From contig JAZDNN010000024.1 of the NCBI GenBank assembly GCA_043799675.1, positions 7,418-71,417 of the forward strand: a stretch of DNA of 64,000 nucleotides. Direction: 5' to 3'. This document shows, one piece after another, positions 6,131 to 55,183 of the stretch (within the stretch, counting starts at the first letter, position 1; each line of letters starts with the position of its first letter). Position numbers and translations under genes: made by a program. The notes under the pieces were generated by a model. It was given only the letters and a program-made list of their open reading frames with translations. It did no database searches and was not told where the DNA came from. Origin of the DNA: Candidatus Aenigmatarchaeota archaeon. GTDB lineage: Archaea > Aenigmatarchaeota > Aenigmatarchaeia > Aenigmatarchaeales > JACQIB01.

Positions 6131-6218
6131 TGGAGCCTCGGGAGGGAATTGCACCCTCGACCTGCTGTTTGCTTGGTTGCTTACAAGACAGCCGCTCTTC
6201 TGCCTGAGCCACCGAGGC
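6131..6218 (-). tRNA. tRNA-Thr(UGU) with a 12-nt mini-intron
   Basis: 88 nt.
- Acceptor: GCCTCGG/CCGAGGC.
- D arm: GCTC-AGGCAGAA-GAGC.
- Anticodon stem: GCTGT/ACAGC. The loop is CUUGUAA after removing a 12-nt intron (6170..6181; central helix CUUG/CAAG, bulges UAA and CAA).
- T arm: GAGGG-UGCAAUU-CCCTC, with an atypical G at position 55.
- CCA is encoded. Confidence 0.8.
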
Positions 6219-24195: not shown

Positions 24196-24405
24196 TTAAG
24201 CCTTCTGCTTGCCGCTGGCTGAGAAGACGTCTTCTGCTGTGATCGTCTTTCGGCCTGCGCGTCTGGCTGCCAATGCCGCATCCAACGCAAGCTCAAAACC
24301 TATCTCATCGACCGCTTTCTGGAGCGCCTTTAATGCTTCGGGGGAAATCTTCTCCACCCCGGCGTTCTTCACGATTTTTTCCATGGATTCGACCGGCAGA
24401 GGCAT
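24196..24405 (-). CDS. archaeal histone (HMf-like histone fold)
   Basis: 69 aa: LPVESMEKIVKNAGVEKISPEALKALQKAVDEIGFELALDAALAARRAGRKTITAEDV, which matches the archaeal histone pattern (...RIIK.AGAERVS..A...L...LEE....I...A...A.HAGRKTI..EDI). Confidence 0.8.
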   Translation of the reverse strand: MPLPVESMEKIVKNAGVEKISPEALKALQKAVDEIGFELALDAALAARRAGRKTITAEDVFSASGKQKA

Positions 24406-24440
24406 TCGGTTTATAAGCCGCTTAACTAAATAAAGACACT

Positions 24441-24842
24441 ATGGCACGTGCGAAGCGCAAGGCAAGGCATGCCGGGAGAACTGTGCAGGGGAAGCGGAAG
24501 GCTGCCGTCAGGGAGCCGACCGTGCAAAGGGTCTCGTTTTCAACCGCGGGGCGGGACGCGCAACTGCGCATGCTGAGGGAGAAGTTCAAGGAAGAGCTTG
24601 GGGAGATAATGAACACGGCGGCGCAAAAACGGAAGAAGGCAAAATCCAAGCAGCTCCAGCAGATAATCCTTTGGGAAATGGACCAGATACGGCACGCGGA
24701 CGCGAAGTACAGGACCGCCATTGACAGGTTGACAAAGGACGTGCCGGCAGGCGACGAGGAGCAGCGGAAGAACGCCCCGATGTTCAACGAATCTAAGACG
24801 GACAAGAGGCCCGCCCCGAAGGAACAGAAGATGGCCGACTAG
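24441..24842 (+). CDS. hypothetical highly basic protein (133 aa)
   Basis: K/R-rich and predicted helical. No family recognised. Confidence 0.4.
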   Translation: MARAKRKARHAGRTVQGKRKAAVREPTVQRVSFSTAGRDAQLRMLREKFKEELGEIMNTAAQKRKKAKSKQLQQIILWEMDQIRHADAKYRTAIDRLTKDVPAGDEEQRKNAPMFNESKTDKRPAPKEQKMAD

Positions 24843-24903
24843 CTGAAAACAATTGCCTTTTGGCGGGAAAGCATAAGCTTAAAAGGGTTAACGGAGGATA
24901 GCG

Positions 24904-24911
24904 TTTTATAA
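24904..24911 (+). promoter_or_regulatory. TATA-box-like element upstream of tfb
   Basis: TTTTATAA lies about 40 nt upstream of the tfb ATG (24950). This matches archaeal TATA consensus and placement only. Confidence 0.3.
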
Positions 24912-24949
24912 GTTTGTATTTTCGCTTCACTACATTAGGGTAGCTAACT

Positions 24950-25945
24950 ATGCCAACCAAAAAGAAGCCTTCGAAACCCGCCAAGGAGGCCAAGCCGGTC
25001 AAGCCGGCAGGAAAGGCCGGCAAGGGCGTCAGTAAATGCCCCGAGTGCGGGACGATGCAGTTCTTCGAGGACGAATCGCGGGGTGAAAGGGTCTGCGCGC
25101 GGTGCGGACTGGTGCTTGAGGAAAGCATGGTCGATACCAGCCCCGAATGGCGTGCTTTTGACGAGGACCAGAGAGGAAAACGGACCAGGACGGGAGCACC
25201 CCTCACAAGGACCAAGCACGACATGGGAATGACCACCGAGATAGGGAGGGGCAAAGGGGAATTGTTCAGGGTCACGCCGGAGAAGAGGGCGCAATACCAC
25301 AGGCTCAAGATATGGCAGAAGAGACTGGTCGAGAGCAAGGACAGGAACCTTTCGTTCGCATTGTCGGAGCTTCAACGGCTCGTGAGCTTCCTGGGGTTGC
25401 CGAAGGGAGTGCACGAGGAAGTGGCAAAGAAGTACGAGCAGGCGGTCGACCGCGGCTTGGTCAGGGGCAGGTCGATGGAATCGGTCATTGCTTCATTATT
25501 GTACGCGGTCACCAGGGAACTGGGGACGCCAAGGACGCTCGAGGAAATTGCCGAAGCAAGCGGCGTGGAAAAGAGGGAAATCGGAAGGACCTACCGTTAC
25601 ATCGCAAGGGAACTGCATATCAGGATACTGCCGGCTCCGCCGGAAGACTATGTGCCAAGATTTGCCAGCATGCTCGGCCTTTCCGACAAGGTGCAGGCAA
25701 GGGCGATACAATTCTTGAGGAGCGCCAAGCGCGATGAGGTGACGGCAGGCAAGGGCCCTACCGGAGTGGCTGCGGCCGCCCTTTACATCGCGGCTGTGCT
25801 TGAGGGCGAGAAGAGGACGCAGAGGGAGATAGCGGATGCGATAGGCGTGACTGAAGTGACAATCCGCAACAGGTTCAAGGAGCTCGTTGAGAAGCTCGGA
25901 ATAGAGAAGGAAGTCGAGGCAAAAGTAAGGGAAATCGGCGGATGA
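24950..25945 (+). CDS. tfb: transcription initiation factor IIB (TFB) with K/P-rich N-terminal extension
   Basis: 331 aa. A zinc ribbon (CPECG...CARCG) is followed by a B-finger/linker and two cyclin-fold repeats (GRSMESVIASLLYAVTRE and GKGPTGVAAAALYIAAVLEG). The first 28 aa or so are PTKKKPSKPAKEAKPVKPAGKAGK. Confidence 0.9.
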   Translation: MPTKKKPSKPAKEAKPVKPAGKAGKGVSKCPECGTMQFFEDESRGERVCARCGLVLEESMVDTSPEWRAFDEDQRGKRTRTGAPLTRTKHDMGMTTEIGRGKGELFRVTPEKRAQYHRLKIWQKRLVESKDRNLSFALSELQRLVSFLGLPKGVHEEVAKKYEQAVDRGLVRGRSMESVIASLLYAVTRELGTPRTLEEIAEASGVEKREIGRTYRYIARELHIRILPAPPEDYVPRFASMLGLSDKVQARAIQFLRSAKRDEVTAGKGPTGVAAAALYIAAVLEGEKRTQREIADAIGVTEVTIRNRFKELVEKLGIEKEVEAKVREIGG

Positions 25946-26205: not shown

Positions 26206-26538
26206 TCAGAACCGCTTCAGCTTTTCCTCGATGAATTTCAGCCTGGCATCAATCGTGTCCAGCTTGCTGAGAATCAGCTCAAGCCTGTCATTCTCGGCGT
26301 GGGCATGCCTGGGCTCTTCCTTCGGCTTCTCGCGCTCGGGCGGGGGCTCGGGATGCTTGCGGGGTATGGTGATATCGAAGCCGCCTATCTCCGGCTCGTG
26401 CCTGACCAGCGGGTCGCCCAGCTCGTCTTCCGGAACGTCCTCGGGACCGGGCAGTCTGAGTTCCCTCTTTACCCTTTCCAGCCCTCCGGGCAAGTCGTCG
26501 TCAAGGGAGCCCTTCTTCCTCTTCAGGCGTTCGAACAT
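26206..26538 (-). CDS. hypothetical protein (110 aa), last gene of a three-gene operon
   Basis: Inner ATG at 26538 shares one nucleotide with the upstream stop (TGATG). It has an acidic/proline-rich centre and a C-terminal amphipathic helix. Confidence 0.45.
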   Translation of the reverse strand: MFERLKRKKGSLDDDLPGGLERVKRELRLPGPEDVPEDELGDPLVRHEPEIGGFDITIPRKHPEPPPEREKPKEEPRHAHAENDRLELILSKLDTIDARLKFIEEKLKRF

Positions 26539-27059
26539 CAGCCTGGCCTCCTGTTGACGGATTCGCGGACATGCGCGTGGGTTATCCCGAACCTTTCGCG
26601 GAGCTCCGCATCGAAGCTGCGCACCTTCGCCTGGGAGTCGGCCAGGTACCTGCGCAGGACGGGCTTGTAGAACGTGTTGAAATACATATAGTAAAGCATG
26701 CCCGTGAACGGATTGTGCCATTCCAGCTCGGTGGTCATGGTAGGCTTCACCCTGACGACTATGTTGCCCGTCTTGGTCTTCTTGTCATACGTGCCCTGGC
26801 ATGCGACCTTTATCCAGATTGTCGTCCAGACGTCCTTCTTGTCCTTGTAGCGCCACTCGCCGTACCAGTGGACAGGGTCGCCGGTCACGTCCCATTCCAG
26901 CCGGTCGGTGAAGGTGCATGAGCTGGAGACGCGCCAGTTCCATTTTGCAATATCATTCATCTCGGCAATCACGAAAGTGGGCTTCGGGACGTTCTTGAAC
27001 TCGCCCGACCAGTCGCGGTTCGGTGCCAGCACGTCCTGCTGGAACTGTATCTTCGACAT
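26538..27059 (-). CDS. hypothetical protein (173 aa), paralog-like partner of 27061..27588
   Basis: Trp/Tyr-rich, beta-rich N-terminal part followed by a basic helical C-terminus. It is similar in size and layout to the upstream gene, with a 1-nt intergenic gap. Confidence 0.5.
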   Translation of the reverse strand: MSKIQFQQDVLAPNRDWSGEFKNVPKPTFVIAEMNDIAKWNWRVSSSCTFTDRLEWDVTGDPVHWYGEWRYKDKKDVWTTIWIKVACQGTYDKKTKTGNIVVRVKPTMTTELEWHNPFTGMLYYMYFNTFYKPVLRRYLADSQAKVRSFDAELRERFGITHAHVRESVNRRPG

Positions 27060-27060
27060 C

Positions 27061-27588
27061 TCAATCTTCCTTCCGCTCGTTCGTGATTTTCTTTACCTCG
27101 TCAACGAAGTTCGCTATCATCCGCCGCCCGTTGCGTATCCACTGCTCGCGCTTCCTCTCGTAGAACATGGAATGCCAGACCATCCTCAGCACCTCGTACA
27201 GCAGGCTCCTCTCCCAGACGGTGTCCTGCGGGTATTCGGTCCTCAGGTTTGCCTCCTTGACCGCTATCTTGACGGTGCCGTAGCCCTTGTTCTCGCTCCC
27301 GCTCAATTCCACCTCAATATAATAATAGCTGAAGTTGTCGAGGTCCTTGTCGGCCTCCCAAAGGACGCTGAACTTCTCGGTCTCCCCTTTCGTCCAGCTT
27401 ATCTTCTTCTCCTGAATCTGCCCGGTGTGCACCTTGAACGCGGTGGCCATCAGGTTCGGTATTTCCTTGTAAAGCTTCGACGGTTCCGGGCCCGTATAGG
27501 TTATCTGGACCATCGGCCGCGGGCGCAGCAGATCGTCCTGAAGCATCAGTTTGGTCCGCGCAATTGTCATCAGCAAACCTCCGTGCAA
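27061..27588 (-). CDS. hypothetical protein (175 aa)
   Basis: First gene of the minus-strand operon, divergent from 27751..31559. No family recognised. Confidence 0.5.
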   Translation of the reverse strand: MHGGLLMTIARTKLMLQDDLLRPRPMVQITYTGPEPSKLYKEIPNLMATAFKVHTGQIQEKKISWTKGETEKFSVLWEADKDLDNFSYYYIEVELSGSENKGYGTVKIAVKEANLRTEYPQDTVWERSLLYEVLRMVWHSMFYERKREQWIRNGRRMIANFVDEVKKITNERKED

Positions 27589-27750
27589 TTGTCATGTTTG
27601 CGGGACTGCAAGCATGCCTGCTTGCGTCCAGGAACGAAGTTCCTTGATGCCGAAACATTGAGGATGTTTCTCATACGGAGAGATTGCTTAGTCGGAATAT
27701 AAGTATTCGCATGAGGGTAACGCTTTAAGTATCGGCTGCCATCTTATGGC

Positions 27751-28014
27751 ATGTCCTCTCTTTTCGAGCGGATGGAAACCAACATGCAGACCGGACGGGT
27801 GTTCCTGGTGTTCGTTGCGATCGTCCTGTTCGCATGGGGACTGGCCAGCATAAGCCTCAAAATCCTGGGGGTCGCGGTCGCGACGCTCGGGTTCGCATTC
27901 CTGATATGGTTCCCGGGAAGAATCGAGCACCAGAGGAAGCTCTACACAAACGCGATAATAAAACTGGGAGTGCTCTTGGTGGCTGCCGGGCTGCTGATGC
28001 TGATATTCGGGTGA
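27751..28014 (+). CDS. small membrane protein (87 aa)
   Basis: Three hydrophobic helices. Its stop abuts the ATG of the 604-aa gene. Confidence 0.45.
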   Translation: MSSLFERMETNMQTGRVFLVFVAIVLFAWGLASISLKILGVAVATLGFAFLIWFPGRIEHQRKLYTNAIIKLGVLLVAAGLLMLIFG

Positions 28015-29829
28015 ATGAATGACAAGCAAAAACCGGGGAATGATGGGATGAGCGACGGAGAAAAACCGTTCTTTCCGCTGCTTGCGTCAGGCACGAAAGG
28101 CAAGTTTGAGACGCCGATGAAGGCCGACCTCAGCAACCAGGACAAGCCGGGAATAATCACAAGTGCCGGCAACAGTCCCTGGTCGAGCAGGCTGTTGTGG
28201 GCCGGCGAAACACTGCCGCCAAGGAGGGAGATCGGAGGCAACCAGTTCATAGCCCTGGACTACACAGGGCCGCCAGGCGAGGGAAGCGGGATCTACTACA
28301 GCCTCATGTTCCAGATGCTCAAGTGGAGATGGAACATCGTGAAGGTGGACGAGAGCATAGAGGTCAGCCCGACCCACCGCGAATACTACGAAAGGACCAT
28401 AGCCACGAAGGGGGCGCTGGAAGGGACCATCAAGGAGGGATTGCGCAGCGCGGCCCAGGCGGTGGCGGATTACGAACTCATACTGCACGACATCCGAAAA
28501 TACAAGGAGATAATGGACTACTTCGAGGCGGTCGCAAAAGCCAGGCAGACCAAGGACAAGGAGGAAAGGAAGAAGAAGGTCGCTTCGGCGGAGCATGTGC
28601 TGAAAGCAATGTACGCGGATCAGGTGGACATCCACACCGGAAACAGCAGCATCGTCCAGATGGCGCAGACGCGGTGGCCGACCATCCTTTCGGACTTCAT
28701 GCGGCTGACCGAAGACATGGACACCATGGACAGGATAAAAGGGGACCTGAAAATCAGCGGCGCGGAAGCTTTGGTGCTCAAGACCAAGAACGACCTGTTC
28801 AGGGAGTGGCTGAAAATATTCGGCCGGGCCGTCCAGGAAAGGTACGAAAGGCTGACCGGGATAACGATCGCAAGGAAGCGGTGCGTCGAGGAGTACAGGG
28901 AATGGATCAAGCCTTACGTTACCAGGTTCAAGGCGATGAAGACCGGGTCGAACCGGGAGGCGTTCAAGTCGTTCATCGACATAACCGGCCAGGCGCTGTA
29001 CAGCAACGAGATAAAGCTGTGGGCGTGGCAGCCGTACAGGGCGGTCGAGATACACAAGGCGCCGATGGTAAAATCGGGCGACTTCACTGTCGAACCCGCG
29101 GACCCGTGGACGGTTGAGCACTACATAAAATCGCAGGTCACCGGTCTCGCCCACAAGGATTATTATCCGTGGCTGCTGCAGGAGGAATCCCCGACGTTCA
29201 AGAAGGCGTCGGATTATCCGTGGCTCGCCGGATTCAGCACCGAAAAGAAGGTGACCATGGCCGACAACATGATAGCCAGGATACGGAACAACTGGAAGAA
29301 GGGGGAGATACCGTGCACGGACCCCAACGACAACTACTACCTCTTCATCACCATGGACATCGACCGGGCGGGGAGCCGGCTGCCCGTAGGAGAGCTTGAG
29401 GACATATTGTTCGACATGCGCATGCACGTCATCTCGCACAACGCGCTGCTGATAAAGATGGTGGAGCTCGACTGCCGGGAAAAGGAGATTGACAGGTACA
29501 TAGAGGAAATACTGGGCATCAAGAAGGACGACAAGAGCATAGAAGAGCTCGTCAAGAAGGAGTTCCCGGACCTGTTCGGGGTACAAAAACCGAAGGAACC
29601 GACTCAGTTCGAACTGTTCAAGAAGGAATGGAGCGACACCATAAACGGTTTCATGGCGCCGTTCAAGAGCGCGAACAAGACGCTCACGAAATCACGCCCG
29701 TGGCTGGTCAAGACCGGCCCGTACGAGACCGACTGGGACGAAAGGATAACCAAGCACTACCTCATCCCGTCCGGGCAGGTGTTCGGCATGGTCACCGGAT
29801 ACCTTATGTCGAAGATGGGCATCGAATAA
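28015..29829 (+). CDS. large hypothetical protein (604 aa)
   Basis: Long ORF with protein-like composition, while its 499-aa antisense ORF is Arg/Pro/Val-rich shadow. No motif recognised. Confidence 0.55.
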   Translation: MNDKQKPGNDGMSDGEKPFFPLLASGTKGKFETPMKADLSNQDKPGIITSAGNSPWSSRLLWAGETLPPRREIGGNQFIALDYTGPPGEGSGIYYSLMFQMLKWRWNIVKVDESIEVSPTHREYYERTIATKGALEGTIKEGLRSAAQAVADYELILHDIRKYKEIMDYFEAVAKARQTKDKEERKKKVASAEHVLKAMYADQVDIHTGNSSIVQMAQTRWPTILSDFMRLTEDMDTMDRIKGDLKISGAEALVLKTKNDLFREWLKIFGRAVQERYERLTGITIARKRCVEEYREWIKPYVTRFKAMKTGSNREAFKSFIDITGQALYSNEIKLWAWQPYRAVEIHKAPMVKSGDFTVEPADPWTVEHYIKSQVTGLAHKDYYPWLLQEESPTFKKASDYPWLAGFSTEKKVTMADNMIARIRNNWKKGEIPCTDPNDNYYLFITMDIDRAGSRLPVGELEDILFDMRMHVISHNALLIKMVELDCREKEIDRYIEEILGIKKDDKSIEELVKKEFPDLFGVQKPKEPTQFELFKKEWSDTINGFMAPFKSANKTLTKSRPWLVKTGPYETDWDERITKHYLIPSGQVFGMVTGYLMSKMGIE

Positions 29830-29927
29830 CCTTTTGCTCGCTGCTTACCGCAGCTCCAAAAGGTTAATCAAAACATTTACTGAGCCTGTTTCATAAAAGC
29901 TAAATACCAGACAGACGAACCCATGTC

Positions 29928-31559
29928 ATGGCTTATGTTTTGGGCGTGAGCACGGGAACCTTCGGGATAGCCCGGTCCGCCGACCCGGAGACCAGGCACG
30001 AATACATCGGAATCCCGAAGAAGGCGCTCTGGAGCATCACCAAGGGGGTGAACTTCGCCCAGGTGGACATGGAGAGCGTGTCCGAGTTCATCGAGCCGGA
30101 CCTTGAGAAGCAGATAGCCGCGCTTGAGAGGATAGGCATCGACGTCGGCATACACGGGGAGGCGAAGGAATACACGAGCGTGATGCCGTACCTGGACAGC
30201 GCCCTGTTCGAAGAGTGGCACCGGAGCCATGACAGGCTGATAAAGTCCCTCACCGGCGCCGGAAAGGACATCCATGCGAAATACTTTTTGCTTCACAGCT
30301 CGGCGAGCACCAGCTGGCAGACGCTCTGGCACGAGTTCCAGCCTACTAATCTGGCCGACATCTGGGGGCGCAGGCTGGACAAGTTCCTTGAGGACAATCC
30401 GGACGTGCAGGAATGGGCGATATCCTCGGAAAGGGTGATGGAGGTCGCCGGCCACCGGACAACCATCATGCCGAAAATTGAGGACCAGAAGAAGGAAGCG
30501 TTCGAGAACTACGTGGAAAGATGGAAACAAGGGCACGAGGGGAAGGAGCTCAGCTCCGATGAGCTTTCAAAAATGAAGAAGGAAGCGGAAGAGGCGACGG
30601 TGGAACAGTTCAAGCGGATACTGGAAAAATTTGTCACCACCTCCGAGCAGACCTACGGAAGCGAAAGGGTGGCCTACTATTGCATCGGGTACTGGATGCA
30701 GGAAGGAAGGAGATGCCCGGTACAGCTGAGGGAAATCTGGAAGAGCATCTGCGGAAGGGGAAATGTATCAGATCATAAATGGGCGGAGGCGGCGGGAGGG
30801 AACAACTGGGTCCCGGCGGTGACTTGCGCTTATACCTGGGGTCACTTCAACCCGGACAAGTGCCCGTCATGGCCGAGCGACCTGAAGAGGCCGGAAGACC
30901 CGAAGCCCATCCTCGAAAAATACAACCTGCTGTTCGTACTTGAAACCCCGGTCGCGGGGGCGGGCGAGGAGGAGCTGCTGAGGCTTGCCAAGCCCACTCA
31001 CATCTACGCACTGGTCAAGAATATGGGCTCGCCGAATGTCGGGGTGGCGTGGGACTCTGAACACCAGCTCTGCGGGGGGATAGACCCGATGAAGGAGGCG
31101 GACAGCCTGCCCGACGGGGCGGGAAAGATGGTAAGGGTGATACACGTCGGGTATCCGGCGGTCCTTGGGCCGGCGCACGTCCCGATACCGCTGGGGAGCG
31201 AGGCGCAGGAATACATCTACAGGATGCTGTGGAAGCTCCGCAAGAAGGGTTTCAAGGACGGGTGGATAATATTCGAACGGGGCGCCGGGCAGGAACCTGT
31301 CAAAGAAAGCGTTATCTCCCTGAGAAAGATAATCGAGTTCCTGGACAAGGAAATCGTTCCTGAAAAGCTGCCTGACGAATTCTACGGGATGGAGAAGGGC
31401 GGGGTGAGGCTGACCAGGCAGGAAGTGGCCATAAAGGACCACGCGATGGACCCGCTGAAAGGGCTGCTGGTGATACCGGAGGAGGAATACGGGTTCCTTT
31501 CAACCGCAGCGGCGGCCAAGGGCAAACTTGAGGAATGGAAGAAGGCCGAGCTGAAGTGA
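29928..31559 (+). CDS. hypothetical protein, possibly xylose-isomerase-like TIM-barrel with a large insertion
   Basis: 543 aa. Spaced motifs GIHGEA, FLLHSS, FVLETP, AWDSEH and VIHVGY resemble the metal-binding strands of AP-endonuclease-2/sugar-phosphate-isomerase barrels. The match is weak and by eye. Confidence 0.45.
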   Translation: MAYVLGVSTGTFGIARSADPETRHEYIGIPKKALWSITKGVNFAQVDMESVSEFIEPDLEKQIAALERIGIDVGIHGEAKEYTSVMPYLDSALFEEWHRSHDRLIKSLTGAGKDIHAKYFLLHSSASTSWQTLWHEFQPTNLADIWGRRLDKFLEDNPDVQEWAISSERVMEVAGHRTTIMPKIEDQKKEAFENYVERWKQGHEGKELSSDELSKMKKEAEEATVEQFKRILEKFVTTSEQTYGSERVAYYCIGYWMQEGRRCPVQLREIWKSICGRGNVSDHKWAEAAGGNNWVPAVTCAYTWGHFNPDKCPSWPSDLKRPEDPKPILEKYNLLFVLETPVAGAGEEELLRLAKPTHIYALVKNMGSPNVGVAWDSEHQLCGGIDPMKEADSLPDGAGKMVRVIHVGYPAVLGPAHVPIPLGSEAQEYIYRMLWKLRKKGFKDGWIIFERGAGQEPVKESVISLRKIIEFLDKEIVPEKLPDEFYGMEKGGVRLTRQEVAIKDHAMDPLKGLLVIPEEEYGFLSTAAAAKGKLEEWKKAELK

Positions 31560-31571
31560 TCCGCGCTCTAT

Positions 31572-32024
31572 CTATGTGAAGAGACTAATGATATCAACGA
31601 GCTGGATCGCCCACCAGAAAAACAGTCCCGTATTTATCAACGCACCGATGCCGCAGACAGCCACGTCCCTTTTCGAAAAGACGTTGAGATTATTACTTGC
31701 CTTGGTAACGGCGCTGTAGCCCAGGATGGCACCCAGCCCCCAACATACGGGCGGGAAGATGAACAGGCCGATGATGGCAAGGAACCATGCGGCAGATGAT
31801 GTTCCCAGCACGCCATTTCTCATCGCGGGAGACGGCTTCTGCGGCGCATTAGTGGCAGCAGGAGCCGCCTGAGCCTGCGCCTTCGACGTCCCGAACACCT
31901 TGTCAGCGTCGCCCTTGCAATAAAGTTTGCCCCCGATCTCTACCGAGCATTTCTTGCAGATTCCTTCTCCGCATTCGCGGCAGACGCCGACGGCATTGAC
32001 CTTGGGATGCTTGTAACACTTCAT
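31572..32024 (-). CDS. membrane protein with N-terminal B-box-like zinc ribbon
   Basis: ATG at 32024 (MKCYKHP..). It has CYKHP...CRECGEGICKKC...LYC, then an A/Q/P linker and two TM helices. Confidence 0.5.
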   Translation of the reverse strand: MKCYKHPKVNAVGVCRECGEGICKKCSVEIGGKLYCKGDADKVFGTSKAQAQAAPAATNAPQKPSPAMRNGVLGTSSAAWFLAIIGLFIFPPVCWGLGAILGYSAVTKASNNLNVFSKRDVAVCGIGALINTGLFFWWAIQLVDIISLFT

Positions 32025-32092
32025 GTTGCCACACACTTAATGGCGAAAGCCCGCTTAAATATCTTATTTTACATTCACACCCGCAATAATCT

Positions 32093-33013
32093 TCACTTTT
32101 GTGCCGTAAGGTTCAGGCAGATTCCTTTCATGCCGTATTCCGTGCTCTTTATTTCGTTACAGAGAGCTGTGTCCCTGTTTTCGATTGCGTACCATTGGAT
32201 GCACAGGTCCTGCTGGATATCGATATTCTCCATGGCGCAGGAAATGTCGCATGTGATTTTCCGGCATTGCGTCCAATCCCTGGTCGCCTTGGCCTTGCAA
32301 AAGCCCTTGGTCTTCGGCATGCCGGTAAGGTCGCATACGGAAACATCCCCCGTGGCGAGCGCATAGGCCCTGATGCAATCCTCCTCGCCAAACGTGGTCG
32401 AGTTGAACAGTTGGTATACCAGATTGCAGGCGCCTGGGTTCCTGAATTCGGCTGCAATCTTTGCCACGCATCCGGCAATCTTGCCTTCGCGCGACCATCC
32501 GTTCACATCAACAACCGGCTCGGCCATCAGGCGGCTGCAATTGCTCCTGACCGCCTGCTCGAGCTTTGCCTTCTCCAACATCGTGTCGAGTATGGAAATG
32601 CTGGTCCTCGCAACCACGGTCCCGCTGCCGCCCCTTATTGTAAGAAGCTCGACCGTGTATTTTCCCGGCCCAAGGTCGCGATAATATTTGTTTGCTTCCA
32701 CCCAATCGACCGCCTTTGCAGTGAACGTTTCATACACCGGCATGGTCACAAATCCGTTCGCATCGATGACCCTGAACCCGTAGGTTGTCCCTTCAGGAAG
32801 CCCTTTTTGCTGGAGAAAGAACCATTCGCCCGTTCCGAGGGATGTCACCGCATTATGGTCGTTGTTCAGGACGAACACCCCGACGCCGGGTGAGATGCCA
32901 TCGGAAACGGTCAGGTTCAATCCCGGCGGTAGCGTGGCGGGTATCATGCCGTTGAGGATGAACAACGCCAGAGGTATGAAAACAACGCACAGAAGCAGAT
33001 ACTTCTTTTTCAC
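32093..33013 (-). CDS. secreted hypothetical protein with Cys-rich C-terminal half
   Basis: 306 aa. The signal/anchor is MKKKYLLLCVVFIPLALFIL. An Ig-like N-terminal part is followed by more than 12 Cys. Confidence 0.5.
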   Translation of the reverse strand: MKKKYLLLCVVFIPLALFILNGMIPATLPPGLNLTVSDGISPGVGVFVLNNDHNAVTSLGTGEWFFLQQKGLPEGTTYGFRVIDANGFVTMPVYETFTAKAVDWVEANKYYRDLGPGKYTVELLTIRGGSGTVVARTSISILDTMLEKAKLEQAVRSNCSRLMAEPVVDVNGWSREGKIAGCVAKIAAEFRNPGACNLVYQLFNSTTFGEEDCIRAYALATGDVSVCDLTGMPKTKGFCKAKATRDWTQCRKITCDISCAMENIDIQQDLCIQWYAIENRDTALCNEIKSTEYGMKGICLNLTAQK

Positions 33014-33122: not shown

Positions 33123-34604
33123 ATGAGCAGACCAAAAAAGAAAACGGTGAAAAAGCAGAAAACGATGCTCCCCAACGTGCCGGCCGAGCTGGCGGAAAAG
33201 GCGAACATAGGATTCAGTGATATGGGCAGCGAAGCTGCCAAGGACGGCATTGCCGCCAAGGGCGGACATGCCATGAAGGGCAAGCAGCCGGTCGGGCAGA
33301 AGCTCAGGAAGTTCTCGCTGGAGACGAGGCTGAAAAGCTCGAACGAGTTCACGGACAAGGTCGTCAAGACGTTCAAGGACTACATCAAATCCGTGGTGGT
33401 TTGGGGTTCAATAACGAGAGGGGACTTCACCGGCAAGAGCGACGTCGATTTGTACGTGATATTTGATGATACCAAAATGCCGCTGAAAAAGTTTGATGAA
33501 CTGAGGGAGAAGATAGACAAGGACCTGTACAAGATGGCTTCCGATACCGACCCGAGGCTGCACGTACAGCCTGTGCTTGCCCTTACCGAGTTCTGGGACG
33601 GAATAAGAACCTGCCATCCCCTGTTCTACAACATCGTCAGGGAAGGGTATGCACTTCATGATACCGGATTCTTCATCCCGATGAGGAAACTGCTTGAGTG
33701 GGGCAAGTTCCCCGCGACCATGGAAGCGGCCGAAATCAGGATGGAAGGGGTGCCGAAGAGGATAAGCAGAGTCCAATCGGTCAAGCTGTACATGATTGCC
33801 GAGGACCTGTACTATGCAATCACCGATGCCGCGCAGAGCGTGCTGATGTACGTCGGGGTCGGGCCGCCGGCACCGAAGGTCCTGGCGAAGGAAGTGAGGA
33901 AGCACCTGGTCGAGACCAAGCTGCTGGAAGAGGAATGGGCGAAGCTGATTGAGGATGTCATGAGCTTCAGGAAGGCGGTGGAGCACAAGGAAATCAAGGA
34001 AATCACCGGGCAGGAGCTGGACAATTGGATAGCAAGGACGGACAAGTACGTCAAGAGGATGGGGGGGCTGCTGGACAACCTGGAGATCGAAAGAAAGGCA
34101 TATGACATCAAGAAGAATTACGAGGTCATGATAAAGGCGAGCGTGGCGGCATTGAAGGCAATCAACAAGCTACCGCCTGAGCCGGAAAAGCTGCCCGCAG
34201 CGTTCAAGAAATACCTGATCGAACCCGGGCTGGTGGCTCCATGGTATTCGGAGGTTTTCGGAAAGGTCATCGAGATGCGGAAGATGCTCGAGGACAAGAA
34301 GATGACGGACATCCCCGAAAGGGACGTCTACATGAGCAAGGAGTACGTGAGACGTTTCATCATGGACGTCAGGCGGGTGGTGGAGAGCAAACGACCCGAG
34401 CAAAAGCAGATGGAGATACCTTCAGAGCCGATTGACAAGATGTCCGAGGCCGGCGCAATGATCAACACGGCCAGGGAAATCGGCATGCAGCAGGAGGCGG
34501 TCGCGGGCATGAAACTTCCTTCTTCCGCCGACAGCAAGGTCAGGAAGATAGCGGAAAAGATTGAGAAAGGCAAGAAGGAAGCGCACAAGAAGCGCGGGGA
34601 GTGA
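33123..34604 (+). CDS. nucleotidyltransferase-domain protein
   Basis: 493 aa. A K-rich N-terminus is followed by a minimal NTase motif (VVWGSITRGDFTGKSDVDLYVIFDD) and long helical regions. Confidence 0.6.
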   Translation: MSRPKKKTVKKQKTMLPNVPAELAEKANIGFSDMGSEAAKDGIAAKGGHAMKGKQPVGQKLRKFSLETRLKSSNEFTDKVVKTFKDYIKSVVVWGSITRGDFTGKSDVDLYVIFDDTKMPLKKFDELREKIDKDLYKMASDTDPRLHVQPVLALTEFWDGIRTCHPLFYNIVREGYALHDTGFFIPMRKLLEWGKFPATMEAAEIRMEGVPKRISRVQSVKLYMIAEDLYYAITDAAQSVLMYVGVGPPAPKVLAKEVRKHLVETKLLEEEWAKLIEDVMSFRKAVEHKEIKEITGQELDNWIARTDKYVKRMGGLLDNLEIERKAYDIKKNYEVMIKASVAALKAINKLPPEPEKLPAAFKKYLIEPGLVAPWYSEVFGKVIEMRKMLEDKKMTDIPERDVYMSKEYVRRFIMDVRRVVESKRPEQKQMEIPSEPIDKMSEAGAMINTAREIGMQQEAVAGMKLPSSADSKVRKIAEKIEKGKKEAHKKRGE

Positions 34605-35419
34605 ATCCGTTGCGCATCCTGGTGATGGGGGACTTCGAGGGAAGCGTCCCGAATGGTTTGAAGAACTTTGTTAAGAGAGAGAAAATAGACTGCATGATAA
34701 GCCCCGGGGATTTCTCGGACACGGCGGAAATAAAGAAAATCGAGTTCGGCAACTGGGGCAAGAGATGGGCCGGGATTGTCGGTAAGGAAAAGGCGGAGAA
34801 ACTGATTGAAAAGTCGTTCAGGAACGGGATTGCAACGCTTAAGGTGCTTGATAATATCGGCATTCCGGTTTATTGCGTCTACGGGAACAATGACGTGTAT
34901 AGAATCGGAAATAAAAAACACCCGTTAAGCAGGAAAGTTTCAAGCATGAAAAACGTCAGGATGATCGGAGGCAAAACGGTGATGCTCGACGGCTTCACAC
35001 TGGCCGCGCACGGCGGCTACAGGGGGTTCGGGCAGAAAAAAGACAGGTTTGAGAAAGTGGATGCGAAGACCGCAAGGAAAATCGAAGACATCAGGAAAAA
35101 ATGGCGCATGCAACTGAGGAAACTGCTGGAAGGAAAGAGAAATGTCATGCTGCTCACGCACGACGTGCCGTACATGTGCAAGCTGGATATGATCCGGAAC
35201 AAGAAATCGCCGCTGGACGGCAAGCACATCGGCGACGAGCTCATCCGGGAAGCCATACTCAGGTACAAACCTGTGATTCACTTGTGCGGGCACATGCACG
35301 AGAACCAGGGAACATGCAGGGTAGGGAAAACAACGATAATCAACGGCGGTTTTGGTCGGTTGGGGCAGGCTGCAATCCTGGAACTGCCGGAAAAATCGGT
35401 AAAGTTCGTCAGTATCTGA
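34601..35419 (+). CDS. calcineurin-like metallophosphoesterase
   Basis: The GTG start overlaps the upstream TGA. Motifs are ILVMGDFEG, SPGDFSD, GNND, LLTHDVP and GHMHEN. Confidence 0.75.
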   Translation: MNPLRILVMGDFEGSVPNGLKNFVKREKIDCMISPGDFSDTAEIKKIEFGNWGKRWAGIVGKEKAEKLIEKSFRNGIATLKVLDNIGIPVYCVYGNNDVYRIGNKKHPLSRKVSSMKNVRMIGGKTVMLDGFTLAAHGGYRGFGQKKDRFEKVDAKTARKIEDIRKKWRMQLRKLLEGKRNVMLLTHDVPYMCKLDMIRNKKSPLDGKHIGDELIREAILRYKPVIHLCGHMHENQGTCRVGKTTIINGGFGRLGQAAILELPEKSVKFVSI

Positions 35420-35922: not shown

Positions 35923-35977
35923 CAAAAACACGCCCAATACGCCGAAGCTATTTATGTAAACGGCTTTATTCTTGTCC

Positions 35978-38668
35978 ATGAAAAACGGCATTGACAAAGG
36001 AAGGCTGTTTTTGTCTCTCATGGTTATAGCCGGAACGTTTCTGCTGACCGGCGTCGGGGGAGTCAGCGGTTATCTAGTCATGACCGACACCATCCAGCCT
36101 GACAGCGGCGGGAAGGACGCCCATATGATATCGGGTTCCCCAAATTTCAATTACGGTGCGGATACAGGGATGGACATAAGAGGCGACGATAACAGGCGCG
36201 CCCTGATAGAGTTCAACCTTTCGAACGCATCGGCGTACACCAACATGATTTCCGCCACCATGAGGCTTTACGCGACCGCAAAGGGGTCCGCAGACCCGGT
36301 AGTGTACGTACACAGGGTGACCAATCCGTGGGTCGAAGGCAGCGGCACGGGTTCCAAAACGGGTGACGGCGTCACATGGAACAACCGGTCCGGCTCGCAG
36401 GCATGGACTTCGTCGGGCGGCGACTACGATCAGAACATCATTACGAACACCACGGTAACGGGCACGAACGCGTGGTTCAGCTGGGACGTGACCGACCTGG
36501 TACGAGGCTGGGCAAACGGGACGTATTCCAACTACGGCCTGCTCATCAGGACGAACACCACCAGCAGCGCCACGACCACCTTTTCCACCAGCGACAACGC
36601 GAATTCGAGCAGGCGGCCCGTCCTTGAAATAAGGTATTTCATACCCCTCAATATCGGTTTTGTGAGCCCGACCCCCGACAGCGGGAGCACGGTGAACCAG
36701 ACATGGGTGTATGTCAACGTGACCCTGTCCAACGGCAACGCCACTGCGGCAAAACTGGAGTTCAACGGGACAAACTACACGATGAGCAACGCCTCCGCAA
36801 CACCCGGCGTCAGGTGGTTCTACAACAAGACAAACATGGCCAACGGGAACTACACGTACAGGGTCTATGCCAATGACACCGATAACAGGGTTTTCTATAA
36901 TTCCTCGGTCAGGACCGTCACCGTCAATGTCTATACGGATTCCACACCGCCGCAATGGAGCAATGCAAACAGTTCAACACCGGCAACATATTCGACAACT
37001 TCATCATCGTTCAACGTCGCATGGACAGACAATGCAGGCATCTCCATTGCGCTGTTCGAATCGAACTACAGCGGAACGGCAACGAATTACACCATGTCCG
37101 GCTCCGGCACCTACAGCTATAGCGCCGTATTGCCGGCCGGGACGTTCTACTGGAAGAGCTATGCGAACGATACCAGCGGTAACCGGAACAGCACGGGCAT
37201 TCGGTACTTCACAATAGGCAGGGCAGACAACCCCGTCAACCTTTACCTGAACGGAAACAGGAACAGCAATATTACGATCGCTTACGGAACGCAATCCAAC
37301 GCCACGGGAACTGCCCAAGCAGGAACCGCGACCATGTTCAGAAACGATGCTTCAATCGGCAACCCTGAAACGGCCATATTCGGTGTCAACGCTGCCGGAC
37401 ATGCATACAAGGTCAACGCCACCGGAAACGCCAACTACTCAGATAACACCACCGGCATCACATATTACCTGATTATCAGCAAGGCGGCCTCGGCAGCTTC
37501 GTTGACGTTTTCACCGGCCTCGCCGGTCTCATATGGCACCGCGACAACTGCAAGATGTTCTTCAACAAATCCGGAAGGTGCGGCCAGGCTTTACAGGGAC
37601 GGCACGGATGTGACGACCGAGAACAATACCGCAATAATCCTTGGCGCAGGCACTTACGGGTATGTGTGCAACGCCAGTGCAACGCAGAACTACACGGCTG
37701 CAAACAGCAACAGCAGCTACGTTGTGAACAAGGCGGCCACAACTACAGCCTTGTTAATAGACGGGACACAGGCCGACAAGACCGTGACCTACGGCACGCA
37801 AACCAACGTGACGGCAACGACGTCCACCGGATCGTTGACACTTTACAGGAACGGGCTGGTCGTATCCAATCCTGACATCACAAACCTCGGGAACGGAACG
37901 TACAACTACACGGCATACAACTACGGAAATGCCAACTTTTCCGGCAGCTCGGTGACACGATGGGTGACCGTGGGCAGCATGACCTCATCCGTCCTGCTCA
38001 TGCTCGACGGGCAGCAGGCCGACCTGTCCGTGACCGCGGGGGATTCGGTCAACATAACCGCGGTTCTGGTCTCGCCTGCGGCAGGGAACCTGAACCTGGC
38101 CATGGACGGCACGACCATCGATTCCGGCCCGTCGCCGCTGCAGAACATCACACTCTTTGCTAATGCAGGCACGTTTTTCATCAATGCGAGCTATGCGGGC
38201 AACGCCAACTATACCCCGGCCAACGCGGGCCTGTACGTGACGGTGCAGAACTCAAAAGCACCCTCCAAAAAAGCGCTAGTGGTCCAGGCGGGCCCGGACG
38301 CGTGCCTGAGATGCCCGCCCCTGACCGACTGGTCCGCATGCGCTGACGGGAAGCAGACAAGGACCGCCTATGATTGCGCCAGCACCACCGCCTATCGCTG
38401 CATCCCGAGGACCGAGGAAAACGCCTGCACCAATCCTGCGCCCCCGATAGTCCAGGAAAACCGGCCGGCCCAGACCGCGCAAGGGGCAGCCGGAAATGCC
38501 AACAATCCGGCGGGCGGGACCGCCCCGCTGGCCGCAGTGACGGGCGCGGCAGGCGCCATGCCGGGCCTGGAACTGATTGCCGGCCTGGCAATCCTGGCCG
38601 GAGGCATAGGGCTGGTCTGGATGAGGCGTACACGGCATCCGCACAGACCGTCAAAAAGGCCCCGCTGA
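35978..38668 (+). CDS. large surface glycoprotein (S-layer-like) with DNRLRE-type domain and C-terminal TM anchor
   Basis: About 896 aa from ATG 35978.
- N-terminal signal/anchor.
- GDDNRRALIEFNLSN...ATMRLYA, a DNRLRE/disaggregatase-like domain.
- Dozens of N-x-S/T sequons in repeated Ig-like segments.
- One Cys-rich TDWSAC..GKQTRT module.
- C-terminal PGLELIAGLAILAGGIGLVWMRRTRH anchor. Confidence 0.7.
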   Translation: MKNGIDKGRLFLSLMVIAGTFLLTGVGGVSGYLVMTDTIQPDSGGKDAHMISGSPNFNYGADTGMDIRGDDNRRALIEFNLSNASAYTNMISATMRLYATAKGSADPVVYVHRVTNPWVEGSGTGSKTGDGVTWNNRSGSQAWTSSGGDYDQNIITNTTVTGTNAWFSWDVTDLVRGWANGTYSNYGLLIRTNTTSSATTTFSTSDNANSSRRPVLEIRYFIPLNIGFVSPTPDSGSTVNQTWVYVNVTLSNGNATAAKLEFNGTNYTMSNASATPGVRWFYNKTNMANGNYTYRVYANDTDNRVFYNSSVRTVTVNVYTDSTPPQWSNANSSTPATYSTTSSSFNVAWTDNAGISIALFESNYSGTATNYTMSGSGTYSYSAVLPAGTFYWKSYANDTSGNRNSTGIRYFTIGRADNPVNLYLNGNRNSNITIAYGTQSNATGTAQAGTATMFRNDASIGNPETAIFGVNAAGHAYKVNATGNANYSDNTTGITYYLIISKAASAASLTFSPASPVSYGTATTARCSSTNPEGAARLYRDGTDVTTENNTAIILGAGTYGYVCNASATQNYTAANSNSSYVVNKAATTTALLIDGTQADKTVTYGTQTNVTATTSTGSLTLYRNGLVVSNPDITNLGNGTYNYTAYNYGNANFSGSSVTRWVTVGSMTSSVLLMLDGQQADLSVTAGDSVNITAVLVSPAAGNLNLAMDGTTIDSGPSPLQNITLFANAGTFFINASYAGNANYTPANAGLYVTVQNSKAPSKKALVVQAGPDACLRCPPLTDWSACADGKQTRTAYDCASTTAYRCIPRTEENACTNPAPPIVQENRPAQTAQGAAGNANNPAGGTAPLAAVTGAAGAMPGLELIAGLAILAGGIGLVWMRRTRHPHRPSKRPR

Positions 38669-50210: not shown

Positions 50211-51795
50211 ATGGAGCAGGAACCTGAAAAGCAGACAGGCAGTCTGCCGAAGGAAATCAAGAAAATCAGCGAGGTCGTCTGGGAACTGCCCACCAGCTAC
50301 AAGAAAGGCATGCGCGTGCCGGCAAGAATATATGCGACCAAGAAGCTGCTCGATGCGATGGACGCGGGAGTGTTCGAGCAGGTCACCAACGTCGCGACCC
50401 TGCCGGGAATCGTCAAGCATGCGTTCTGTATGCCGGATGGGCACTGGGGTATGGGTCAAGTCGCGGCTTGATTCACTCAAATATGGGTTCCCAATCGGCG
50501 GCGTGGCTGCATTCGACCCGAAGGTCGGCGTGATCAGCCCGGGCGGCATCGGGTTCGACATCAACTGCGGCATGAGGTTCGTCACTACCAACCTTACTGT
50601 CAAGGACGTCAAACCCAAGCTGAAAGAACTGGTGGATATCCTGTTCAGGACGGTTCCCGCGGGCGTGGGCGGGGAAGGGTTTGTAAAATTAAGCCGCAGC
50701 CAATTCGACGAAATAATGGTCCAAGGGGCCAATTGGGTCATCGAGCACGGCTACGGTTGGAAAGAGGACACGGAAAGAATAGAGGAGTACGGCTGCATCA
50801 AAGGTGCTGATCCGTCAAAGGTCAGCGACAAGGCAAGGACCAGAGGCATCACGCAGATGGGGACGCTCGGCTCAGGGAACCATTACCTGGAAATCCAGAC
50901 TGCCGAGAAAATTTTCCTTCCCGAAGTCGCAGAGGCATTCGGCGTGAACGAACAGGGGCAGATAGGGGTGATGGTGCACTGCGGCTCGAGGGGGTTCGGC
51001 CACCAAATCGGAACGGATTATCTCAGGATATTCGACATGGCAATGAAGAAGTACAACATCACGGTGCCTGACAGGGAGCTTGCCTGTGCGCCTTTTGCGA
51101 GCCAGGAAGGACAGGATTATTATCACGCGATGGCCTGCGCGGCAAACATGGCTTTTGCCAACAGGCAGGTGATTTTGCACAGGATACGCGAGGCTTTTGC
51201 AAAGGTGTTCAGGAAATCCCCCGAAGACATGGAAATGCACCTGGTGTACGATGTCGCGCACAACGTGGCCAAGGTGGAGAAACACCTGGTCGACGGTCAT
51301 GAAAAGGAACTGGTGATGCACCGGAAGGGGAGCACGCGCTGCTTCGGTCCGGGTAGGCCGGAGATTCCTGAAGCTTACCGCAAGGTCGGCCAGCCGGTGA
51401 TTGTGGGCGGCAGCATGGAAACGGGCAGCTTTTTGTGCGTGGGCACGGACAAGGCTCTGACAGAAACATGGGGAAGCACCATGCACGGCGCGGGCAGAAC
51501 CATGAGCAGGACTTCAGCGAGGAACCAGGGCTCGGGCTTGGCGTTGCAGAAGAAGATGGCCAAGGAAGGGATACTGGTGGAAGCCACGAGCATGAGCGGG
51601 CTTGCAGAGGAAGCGGGCTTTGCCTACAAGGACCTGAACGAAGTGGTCGAGACCATGGAAATCGCGGGCGTGAGCAGGAAGGTCGTTCTGCTGAGGCCTT
51701 TGGGTAATATTAAAGGCACCGCCCGGGCCTCATACAGCCTTTTAGCTTTCCCCATACTTGTCATGGTCTTGGCCTTGATTTCGTCCCTTATCTGA
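50211..51795 (+). CDS. rtcB: RNA-splicing ligase RtcB, coding sequence interrupted by a 31-nt BHB intron (exon 1 50211..50450, exon 2 50482..51795)
   Basis: - Exon 1 (80 aa) ends ...LPGIVKHAFCMPDGHWG.
- Exon 2, in another frame, starts YGFPIGGVAAFD...GGIGFDINCGMR, and HCGSRGFGHQ and further motifs follow.
- Joining at 50450/50482 recreates the universal MPD.H.GYGF.IGG motif.
- Unspliced, the first frame stops at 50469-50471 after 86 aa.
- The C-terminus carries a hydrophobic extension of about 25 aa after the usual ...IKG end. Confidence 0.85.
50451..50481 (+). other. predicted bulge-helix-bulge (BHB) intron within the rtcB mRNA
   Basis: - Central helix: UGGG (50445-48) / CUCA (50476-79).
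- Bulges: GUA (50449-51) and AAU (50480-82), each 3 nt.
- Inner helix: 9 bp, UGGGUCAAG/CUUGAUUCA, with loop UCGCGG.
- Cleavage after the 2nd bulge nucleotide on each side removes exactly the 31 nt needed to restore the frame. Confidence 0.75.
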
Positions 51796-54436: not shown

Positions 54437-55183
54437 CTATTTTGAGGTCTTAACCGCTTTTTTTGCGGCGCAGACCCCGAGGTCATGCCTGAGCGAGGGC
54501 CCGCCCGCATCCGCATCGAAGCACCCCCCGTCGGAGTGCCAAGTCGACCTGACGGAAGCCACTTCAACCGGGATTAAGGCTTCTGTTTCGATTTCTACTA
54601 TATCCAGTTTGTTGTCTTTCATCCTGTAAGAAGCCGCTTTCTGTTTGGCCAGCTTTTGGATGACCTCAAGATTATGATTCCAGTAATCGTCCATCGTTGC
54701 CTTGTATTCCTTGTCGGAATTCATCAGTTCAGCCGACTCCTGTGCCTTGAAGTGTCTTACTCCAAAGTCCAGCTTGAACTCCTCGGGTATTCTCTGATAG
54801 ACCAGTTCCTGGATTATCCTGTCCGCATTGGCGATGAACCCTTTGCGTTTATAGTCCCTGAACTTTCCTGCGTCCCCTTTGGCCATCAGGAGCGCATAGC
54901 CTTTCTTTTCAAGGTCCTTTTCCAGCCTCTTTCCGTCAATTATGGCCAATATTTCATCGACCTCTCCCAACCTTTCTTTTACAGAAAAATCATCATCAAA
55001 TATTACAGAGCCATTGTAAGCGGCCAGCTTCGAATCATACGCGCCTGCTGCACGCAGATAATCGAGAACACAGCCTTCAACAGTTACAGGCACGGCTTTT
55101 CCCGTGAACCTGAATTCCCCGTCGATAATCCTCACTTCAGGCTCGGGCATCACGACCGTTGTTATTTTGCTCATGATAATCAT
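54437..55183 (-). CDS. DGR target protein B (VR near C-terminus)
   Basis: 248 aa. The C-terminal ...SVRSTWHSDGGCFDADAGGPSLRHDLGVCAAKK is encoded by VR-B. The N-terminal 200 aa are unrelated to targets C and D. No signal peptide is seen. Confidence 0.7.
   Translation of the reverse strand: MIIMSKITTVVMPEPEVRIIDGEFRFTGKAVPVTVEGCVLDYLRAAGAYDSKLAAYNGSVIFDDDFSVKERLGEVDEILAIIDGKRLEKDLEKKGYALLMAKGDAGKFRDYKRKGFIANADRIIQELVYQRIPEEFKLDFGVRHFKAQESAELMNSDKEYKATMDDYWNHNLEVIQKLAKQKAASYRMKDNKLDIVEIETEALIPVEVASVRSTWHSDGGCFDADAGGPSLRHDLGVCAAKKAVKTSK
54467..54558 (-). repeat. DGR variable repeat VR-B (92 nt)
   Basis: Colinear with the spliced TR. There are 16 differences, 14 at TR adenines and 2 at G positions. 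Confidence 0.75.

Follow-up and report, generated by a model that had tools for sequence, protein, structure and literature searches.

A divergent gene cluster specific to Aenigmatarchaeota encodes a putative metal-dependent TIM-barrel protein and a large predicted coiled-coil partner

Six genes (A to F) at positions 26206-31559 of a 64,000-nucleotide (nt) stretch of contig JAZDNN010000024.1 (Candidatus Aenigmatarchaeota archaeon, assembly GCA_043799675.1; the whole stretch is referred to as the window) form a module that is vertically inherited, specific to Aenigmatarchaeota and nearly universal in that phylum. Aenigmatarchaeota are uncultured DPANN archaea with small genomes, and most of their lineage-specific genes are unannotated. 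The ancient core of the module is the E-F pair, and D and the paralogues B and C belong to the main clade of the phylum. Protein F is best seen as a new subfamily, His-rich and bearing an insertion, of a known metal-dependent superfamily, B and C as a new family of a predicted known fold class, and D and A as new small proteins. We tentatively read the cluster as possibly encoding one membrane-tethered multiprotein complex, a proposal drawn from gene order only.

Layout, gene order and distribution of the cluster

The six open reading frames (ORFs) lie where a preliminary description of this DNA, made from the letters alone, had put them, with the coupling and arrangement it had given. On the minus strand, a 1-nt gap separates the stop codon of C from the ATG of B, and A overlaps B by 1 nt, the ATG of A sharing the A of B's TGA (cTGATG). 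On the plus strand, the TGA of D, which had been called a membrane protein of 87 amino acids (aa), directly abuts the ATG of the 604-aa E, and a 98-nt spacer separates E from F in the window. The two divergent operons of that description held, and the region between them had to be redrawn: the true start of C is most likely ATG 27570, because the identical deposited 169-aa protein V1887_01995 (P0202) starts there and a GGAGG is located 6 nt upstream, and therefore the divergent intergenic region is more likely 27571-27750 (180 nt) than 27589-27750 (160 nt). Likewise, in the pair given as about 175 aa each, B has 173 aa and C, with its later start, more likely 169 aa. Protein F was 100% identical to V1887_02010, a hypothetical protein from a metagenome-assembled genome (MAG) of a Candidatus Aenigmatarchaeota archaeon. 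All six ORFs are real genes and not chance ORFs, since each has many homologues at the same relative position in other genomes. The features of the locus are as follows.

26206-26538, minus strand: gene A, 110 aa, soluble
26538-27059, minus strand: gene B, 173 aa, soluble
27061-27570, minus strand: gene C, 169 aa from ATG 27570; the ORF extends to TTG 27588
27571-27750: divergent intergenic region between C and D, with two back-to-back A/T-rich TATA-like boxes
27696-27707: TATA-like box AATATAAGTATT, read from the sequence; could serve the minus-strand operon
27724-27731: TATA-like box TTTAAGTA, read from the sequence; ends 20 nt before the ATG of D
27751-28014, plus strand: gene D, 87 aa, predicted membrane protein
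28015-29829, plus strand: gene E, 604 aa, soluble
29928-31559, plus strand: gene F, 543 aa

The two boxes fit divergent archaeal promoters, a function that we infer, and the B-C(-A) operon appears to share this promoter region with D-E-F. The distance between box TTTAAGTA and the ATG of D would imply a near-leaderless D-E transcript. Another A/T TATA-like box lies about 25-35 nt upstream of F, and F may have an additional promoter of its own in this genome. A hairpin with a 9-bp stem (TCCTTGATG...CATTGAGGA) was also seen at 27641-27664, inside what is presumed to be the 5' leader of operon C-B-A on the minus strand, and could be regulatory.

Gene order was compared by translating all ORFs of 83 loci (numbered with the prefix L) and matching them to the window proteins by BLASTP and jackhmmer; the synteny counts refer to species-level genomes with enough flanking sequence. 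In 64 of 70 genomes F lies directly 3' of E, and in at least 64 of 74 D immediately precedes E; two B/C paralogues occur no more than 2.5 kb upstream of E in 53 of 63, and a Pol-beta-type nucleotidyltransferase is found within 4.5 kb on the downstream side of E in 42 of 58. By jackhmmer, the D family is present in 75 of the 83 loci, nearly always immediately upstream of E, and A follows directly downstream of B in 32 of them, within a sub-clade only. The start and stop codons of E and F abut or overlap in many genomes (e.g. L003, L007), and D, E and F form an operon whose genes abut or overlap in most genomes. This order, together with the divergent B/C pair, persists while the identity of E drops to 31-35%, which agrees with the module proposed in the preliminary description.

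Deep-branching Aenigmatarchaeota encode short, distant relatives of E (about 400-490 aa), each directly upstream of an F-like protein, after which come the nucleotidyltransferase and Trm1, with TFB nearby. The F-like protein of one of these lineages (L084:9263-11113) is homologous to F (BLASTP E 5e-34). Hidden Markov model (HMM) searches of the deep-lineage loci L084 and L085 detected none of A, B, C and D. It is because the E-F pair survives where A to D are undetectable that we regard it as the ancient core. Histone and TFB genes lie upstream of the module in the window (24196-25945; Pfam-annotated in the syntenic loci L001 and L003) and beside it throughout the main clade, and TFB and Trm1 are found nearby in L084 and L085. 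Throughout the phylum, this part of the chromosome keeps its gene order to an unusual degree.

To the extent that the families can be traced, they stay within that phylum. A word-indexed search returned 183 relatives of E, none of them with a Pfam domain, and an exhaustive HMM scan of 1.84 billion (1.84e9) representative proteins gave 274 hits for E. Searches with F and C gave 81 and 52 hits, respectively, over the same range as E. A relative of E is encoded by 191 species-representative genomes, with one copy per genome. All named sources of relatives were Aenigmatarchaeota MAGs, a few of them labelled 'Nanoarchaeota', 'Micrarchaeota' or 'archaeon' by their submitters. The suspected lineage-specificity was borne out in this way, and neighbourhood conservation, for which a comparison across DPANN genomes had been suggested, holds within the one phylum Aenigmatarchaeota and not across DPANN. 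Nor did the searches return well-characterised, unrelated homologues without conserved co-occurrence. The module is kept in nearly every species, beside core transcription genes and in genomes that have shed most of their metabolism, and is probably important to the life of the cell.

A cluster of uncharacterised lineage-specific proteins might also be a mobile element, a prophage remnant or an anti-virus defence island, and the nearby Pol-beta nucleotidyltransferase does give weak matches to PADLOC candidate systems. We regard this explanation as effectively refuted: none of the six proteins matched a PADLOC defence-system model, no relative was found among 2.9 million viral contigs, the GC content of the module (0.56-0.58) shows no anomaly against nearby DNA (0.53-0.57), and the module sits as a single copy at a fixed position beside TFB and histone genes in 191 species.

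Features of the encoded proteins

The large proteins fall, as the preliminary description had said, in no recognised family: searches of Pfam, NCBIfam, PADLOC and PDB gave only a weak match of F residues 328-467 to PF01261 (AP_endonuc_2; E 2e-4, 21.5 bits against a gathering threshold of 31.1 bits). PF01261 was matched by 31 of the 48 F-family members (E up to 0.1, best E 1.9e-9), and the deep-branching orthologue L084:9263-11113 reached 55.6 bits, above that threshold. Membership of PF01261 appears to hold for the F family and not for the window sequence alone, and the xylose-isomerase-like TIM barrel with a large insertion that had been faintly perceived in F was recovered. F has about 13 invariant His, Asp and Glu residues (H76, H101, H123, D144, E246, H306, E339, E348, D376, E378, H379, H406, H417, E450), of which the putative metal-site set E339, D376-x-x-H379, H406 and E450 is invariant in 48 sequences. 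H123 is separated from the second half of the barrel by an inserted stretch of about 150-190 residues, and the C-terminal tail (EHALDPLKGLL...EEWKKE) is highly conserved. On sequence evidence, F is placed in the metal-dependent xylose-isomerase-like TIM-barrel superfamily, with the Glu-Asp-His-Glu metal-site positions kept and extra invariant histidines added.

To compare F with Endonuclease IV (Endo IV), the insertion (residues 151-295) was removed and E. coli Nfo was joined to the family alignment with MAFFT-add. Nfo H109, E145, D179, H182 and H216 aligned with F H123, E339, D376, H379 and H406, and Nfo H69, D229, H231 and E261 had no matching residue in this alignment; by eye, F H76, H417 and E450 are candidates for H69, H231 and E261, and D229 has no counterpart. 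Five of the nine trinuclear-zinc ligands of Endo IV were aligned with identical, invariant residues of F, short of the full set. Four of these five are common to the xylose-isomerase-like superfamily, including sugar epimerases such as D-psicose 3-epimerase, and H123 alone is Endo IV-specific; the four shared positions are therefore insufficient by themselves to make F an Endo IV. No solved Endo IV was a significant PDB match, the best being a mimivirus AP endonuclease (6khy, E 0.48); the NCBIfam deoxyribonuclease IV (nfo) model hit one of 18 members at a non-significant E of 0.048; and hhalign of the F family against E. coli Nfo gave a probability of 1.8%. PDB searches with the F family profile and with an insertion-deleted F profile returned nothing significant, and NCBIfam searches with insertion-deleted F sequences returned no recurring family.

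These comparisons bear on the possibility that the cluster encodes a nucleic-acid repair or end-processing complex, in which F would be an Endo IV-like trinuclear-metal AP endonuclease or 3'-phosphodiesterase, E a non-ATPase coiled-coil tether resembling SMC/Rad50, the nucleotidyltransferase an enzyme that fills or tails ends, and B/C, as TBP-like proteins, the contact to nucleic acid. The five aligned ligands with their three by-eye companions, 6khy as the only PDB sequence hit for F, the nucleotidyltransferase as a conserved downstream neighbour and the adjoining histone and TFB genes all fit this explanation. It is weakened by the superfamily-wide occurrence of four of the ligands, the positions that MAFFT left unaligned or that have no counterpart, and the lack of a significant nfo match; moreover, E has neither a Walker A lysine nor an ATPase head and matches only generic coiled coils in the PDB, and a membrane anchor abutting E is unexpected for a repair factor. 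We consider a repair complex unlikely; if it were real, it would be an unusual membrane-tethered repair system.

MNIO enzymes are likewise TIM barrels with an Endo IV-like multinuclear His/Asp/Glu site, and they require an adjacently encoded partner. F and E could by analogy be a pair of this kind that modifies proteins or peptides (DUF692/MbnB-type, with a multinuclear iron site), with F as the oxidase, E as the partner that recruits the substrate and a small neighbouring protein as the substrate. The architecture, the multinuclear site and the need for a partner do resemble F-E, and F is His-rich and always paired with E. Yet none of the 48 F members matched PF05114/DUF692, E matches nothing RRE-like or MbnC-like, D is a conserved membrane protein rather than a leader-core peptide, and the chemistry needs O2, while many of the source MAGs appear to come from groundwater or sediment. 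Such a pair is very improbable.

At its N terminus, the orthologue of F in L084 (9263-11116) has a domain of glutaredoxin/thioredoxin fold (PF00462, E 3e-10) that raised the idea of a redox role; the CxxC motif of this domain is lost, and therefore nothing about redox was concluded for F. In L085, a pullulanase-like gene comes after that of the F-like protein, which has 833 aa. No informative domain fusions were found among the longer relatives of F.

B and C had been described as a similar, Trp/Tyr-rich pair, and both points hold. Their Trp plus Tyr contents are 9.8% and 8.0%, respectively; pairwise BLASTP aligned them at 21% identity (E 3e-4), and hhalign of the two families gave a probability of 100% (E 3.6e-42) over 158 columns, end to end, as expected of paralogues. 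Mean pairwise identity in the same 18 genomes was 40% for B and 58% for C, and B is the fastest-evolving member of the module. The AlphaFold2 (AF2) model of C (predicted local distance difference test, pLDDT, 83.8) has the order b-b-a-b-b-b-b (b, strand; a, helix) followed by a 45-residue C-terminal helix, and an invariant loop, R-T-E-Y-P-Q-D-T-x-W, stands just before that helix. The predicted fold of C is of the alpha+beta helix-grip/TBP-like type, and the model shows the helix-grip fold of the SRPBCC/START/Bet v1 superfamily; this is an assignment of fold only. None of the 37 members matched Pfam START, Bet_v_1, Polyketide_cyc, AHSA1 or similar families at E up to 1, and a PDB profile search with the C family returned nothing relevant.

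The AF2 model of E (pLDDT 77.4) suggests a beta-sheet core built from N-terminal, middle and C-terminal strands (78-85, 107-118, 328-341, 441-456 and 459-474, with helices 89-103 and 475-500), into which two insertions are set. The first, between the second and third core strands, is predicted to fold into antiparallel coiled coils (helices 123-177, 182-208 and 249-307, the long ones having 55-59 residues), and the second spans 342-440. Conserved motifs are TGPPGxxS (84-92) and VKVDE (110-113). Foldseek of the model against the PDB gave no hit below E 0.19, only coiled coils being matched, and PDB sequence and profile searches with the E family gave nothing significant. By this model, E combines a beta-sheet core with long coiled coils in antiparallel arrangement, and it lacks a relative among solved structures.

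Three assignments of E were tried and rejected. A degenerate P-loop NTPase does not agree with the consensus TGPPGxASxLYY, in which TGPPGxxS is not a Walker A motif because it has no lysine, and no AAA, SMC_N or ABC Pfam model matched. An HD-domain protein was discarded since the conserved H121 and H158-D159 are about 37 residues apart, with H158-D159 mid-way along the 55-residue helix that starts just after H121, and cannot form one metal site. Detectable paralogy to B/C at the sequence level was rejected, too, with hhalign probabilities of at most 1.5% in three set-ups. With the insertions taken out, the modelled core of E has the same order of secondary structures as C, and a collinear, non-significant alignment places a '(Y/F)TGPxP' turn before the first helix in both. 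That E is a third helix-grip paralogue of B/C is kept as a conjecture, as the profile comparison gives no support for homology.

D is the sole module protein with hydrophobic segments, three in number (about 16-35, 38-55 and 66-86); its consensus shows two glycine-rich hydrophobic stretches and a conserved FPD...YQ loop, and it is predicted to be a small polytopic membrane protein, in line with the preliminary description. The N-terminal two thirds of A are variable, rich in Pro and acidic residues, and probably disordered, and conservation is limited to a heptad helix at the C terminus (consensus dk.dliLqKLeTIDxRLkliEEkl). Gene A had no Pfam, NCBIfam or PADLOC match.

The module might mainly be a structural, membrane-shaping or cell-contact scaffold, with E, anchored by D, comparable to cytoskeletal proteins or to the helical hairpins of ESCRT-III/PspA, B, C and A as accessories and F in a secondary or regulatory role. 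The heptad helix of A, the membrane anchor and the near-universality of the module in a phylum of presumed episymbionts suit this idea. Against it, the coiled-coil matches of E are generic antiparallel ones that are short or of high root-mean-square deviation, there is no ESCRT-III/PspA Pfam signal, and the invariant metal-ligand set of F points to a working enzyme. A scaffold of this kind is improbable.

Possible functions of the cluster

One complex with F as its catalytic subunit is the simplest reading because of the abutment of the anchor gene and E, the abutment or overlap of E and F, the divergent helix-grip pair, the identical phyletic range and the metal-ligand set of F. In such a complex, D would anchor E at the cytoplasmic face of the membrane, and the coiled coils of E would hold F in place, serving as scaffold or spacer. 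F would carry a bi- or trinuclear metal centre and might catalyse isomerisation or dehydration of a sugar or polyol phosphate, or hydrolysis of a phosphodiester. A B-C heterodimer would bind a hydrophobic or amphipathic ligand and present it to the complex, and candidate substrates would be lipid head groups or polyprenyl-linked sugar phosphates. That the substrate is membrane-associated is a further step, and we hold it with less confidence than the complex itself. It is favoured by the anchor D together with the ligand-binding fold class of B/C, and by the superfamily of F, most members of which act on sugars or polyol phosphates. A further reason is that DPANN Cluster 2, Aenigmarchaeota included, commonly has incomplete lipid biosynthesis (PMC7414124). 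If the complex handles host-derived lipids or envelope precursors, it bears on how DPANN symbionts get membranes that they cannot make.

Several observations weigh against this proposal. The housekeeping genes for TFB, histone, the Pol-beta-type nucleotidyltransferase and Trm1 are syntenic with the module as well, even in distant members, and therefore the conserved order is partly inherited genome architecture and weaker evidence of a common function. B/C and D are undetectable beside E-F in some genomes. In a mirror-tree test, all pairs, including those with the neighbouring nucleotidyltransferase, correlated at 0.65-0.87, and the module members were not separated from that neighbour. The extra histidines of F and the alignment with Nfo are no less compatible with a nuclease or phosphodiesterase than with a sugar enzyme. 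The top conserved feature of C is the polar loop TEYPQDTxW, which suggests a protein interface or active site and not a greasy pocket. Our confidence in the complex is low.

The first three of these points could also mean that the cluster is no single functional unit, with two or three unrelated operons (B-C-A; D-E; F with or without the nucleotidyltransferase) adjacent only through slow change of gene order in this region within the phylum. The lack of B/C nearby in 10 of 63 genomes and of F in 6 of 70, the restriction of A to a sub-clade, and the 98-nt spacer and TATA-like box of F's own in the window are compatible with this, as is the lack of a module-specific mirror-tree signal. Abutting or overlapping codons of D/E in the window and of E/F in many genomes argue instead for co-translation; all five core families have one and the same narrow distribution, outside which no relatives occur, and the adjacency of E and F persists in the deepest lineages despite different surrounding genes. 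Mere neighbourhood is an unlikely explanation.

If the conjectured kinship of E with B/C were right, the module might be an undescribed molecular machine that defines the phylum: E, a much-expanded, membrane-anchored helix-grip protein of new fold, would join with B, C and the multinuclear-metal enzyme F to take up or remodel membrane lipids, or another amphipathic compound, derived from the host. We regard this version as quite doubtful. If true, the machine would be a solution particular to this lineage for the lipid dependence of DPANN symbionts.

Whether it handles lipids or repairs nucleic acids, the module can be used as a phylum marker. It also offers a clonable target: a metal-dependent TIM-barrel subfamily with an obligate partner, a helix-grip family and a 600-residue protein that has no solved relative.

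Neighbouring genes and comparison with known systems

A candidate associated neighbour lies downstream of the module.

33123-34604, plus strand: Pol-beta-superfamily nucleotidyltransferase, 493 aa; NTP_transf_2 at 79-133 (Pfam), with a long helical C-terminal part

The nucleotidyltransferase follows F in most genomes, directly so in L001, L003 and the deep lineage L084, and may belong to the module. A CCA-adding enzyme was considered and rejected, as no such NCBIfam model matched. The gene overlaps the start of a gene for a 272-aa calcineurin-like metallophosphoesterase (33123-35419 for both, plus strand). In the window, two minus-strand genes (31572-33013) separate F from the nucleotidyltransferase: one encodes a 154-aa protein that has a B-box-like zinc finger at its N terminus and hydrophobic segments towards its C terminus, the other a Cys-rich protein of 306 aa with an N-terminal hydrophobic segment. 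Since no homologue of either occurs among the 83 related loci, the insertion is lineage-specific.

Elsewhere in the window, an Rfam RT-16 RNA motif (RF03019; 54197-54373, minus strand; 57.2 bits, above the gathering score) lies immediately upstream of a gene for a 358-aa reverse transcriptase (52915-53991, minus strand; RVT_1 E 3e-16), and the two appear to form a retroelement-like unit in an Aenigmatarchaeota genome. Beside this unit are 93-nt direct repeats (54467-54559 and 55325-55417), 82% identical and 858 nt apart. Although they resemble the template and variable repeats of a classical diversity-generating retroelement, that assignment was rejected, as the 17 mismatches fall on bases other than adenine too, whichever strand is read. 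A gene for a 411-aa LAGLIDADG-domain protein with a helix-turn-helix adjoins the reverse transcriptase gene (51624-52859, minus strand) and is overlapped on the opposite strand by a gene for an RtcB tRNA-splicing ligase (50332-51795, plus strand). ARAGORN gives the tRNA-Thr(TGT) gene at 6131-6218 (minus strand) a length of 88 nt, compared with 71 positions in the Rfam model; the excess points to an intron or a long insertion. A probable surface protein of 898 aa (35972-38668, plus strand) contains a disaggregatase-related repeat together with a bacterial Ig-like domain.

Taken as a whole, the module is not assignable to any described system, a classing that does not amount to a claim of a new mechanism. 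Aenigmarchaeota have been reported to possess a lineage-specific family module, Module 128, that comes without functional prediction in the passages of Castelle et al. 2021 (Front Microbiol, PMC8204110) that were searched. The present families match that description of unannotated, phylum-specific families, and operon structure, folds and the metal site are not mentioned in those passages. Compared with SMC/Rad50 arms, prefoldin, ESCRT-III hairpins and IpaB, E is without an ATPase head, a hinge or an ESCRT-III core, and unlike antiparallel coiled-coil scaffolds it is predicted to carry its coiled coils as insertions within a beta-sheet domain. B and C show no sequence or profile similarity to START/Bet v1/SRPBCC and TBP-like domains (Lam2 and Aster StART-like, Ups1/PRELI, CoxG, polyketide cyclases, KA1 and DUF4468). 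They further differ from START/Bet v1/SRPBCC proteins in an unusually long C-terminal helix (45 residues in the C model), in having a polar loop as their signature and in occurring as an obligate paralogue pair. For F, the closest named member of its superfamily is Endo IV (E. coli Nfo): PF01261 matches the second half of the F barrel, and the N-terminal beta-1 motifs are alike (Y-x-I-G-V-S-S-G in F, K-Y-I-G-A-H-V-S in Nfo). In contrast to Nfo, F lacks an equivalent of D229, is twice as large (543 aa vs 285), has an insertion with invariant residues of its own (D144, E246, W271, W294 and H306) and a conserved 90-residue C-terminal tail, and is always paired with E.

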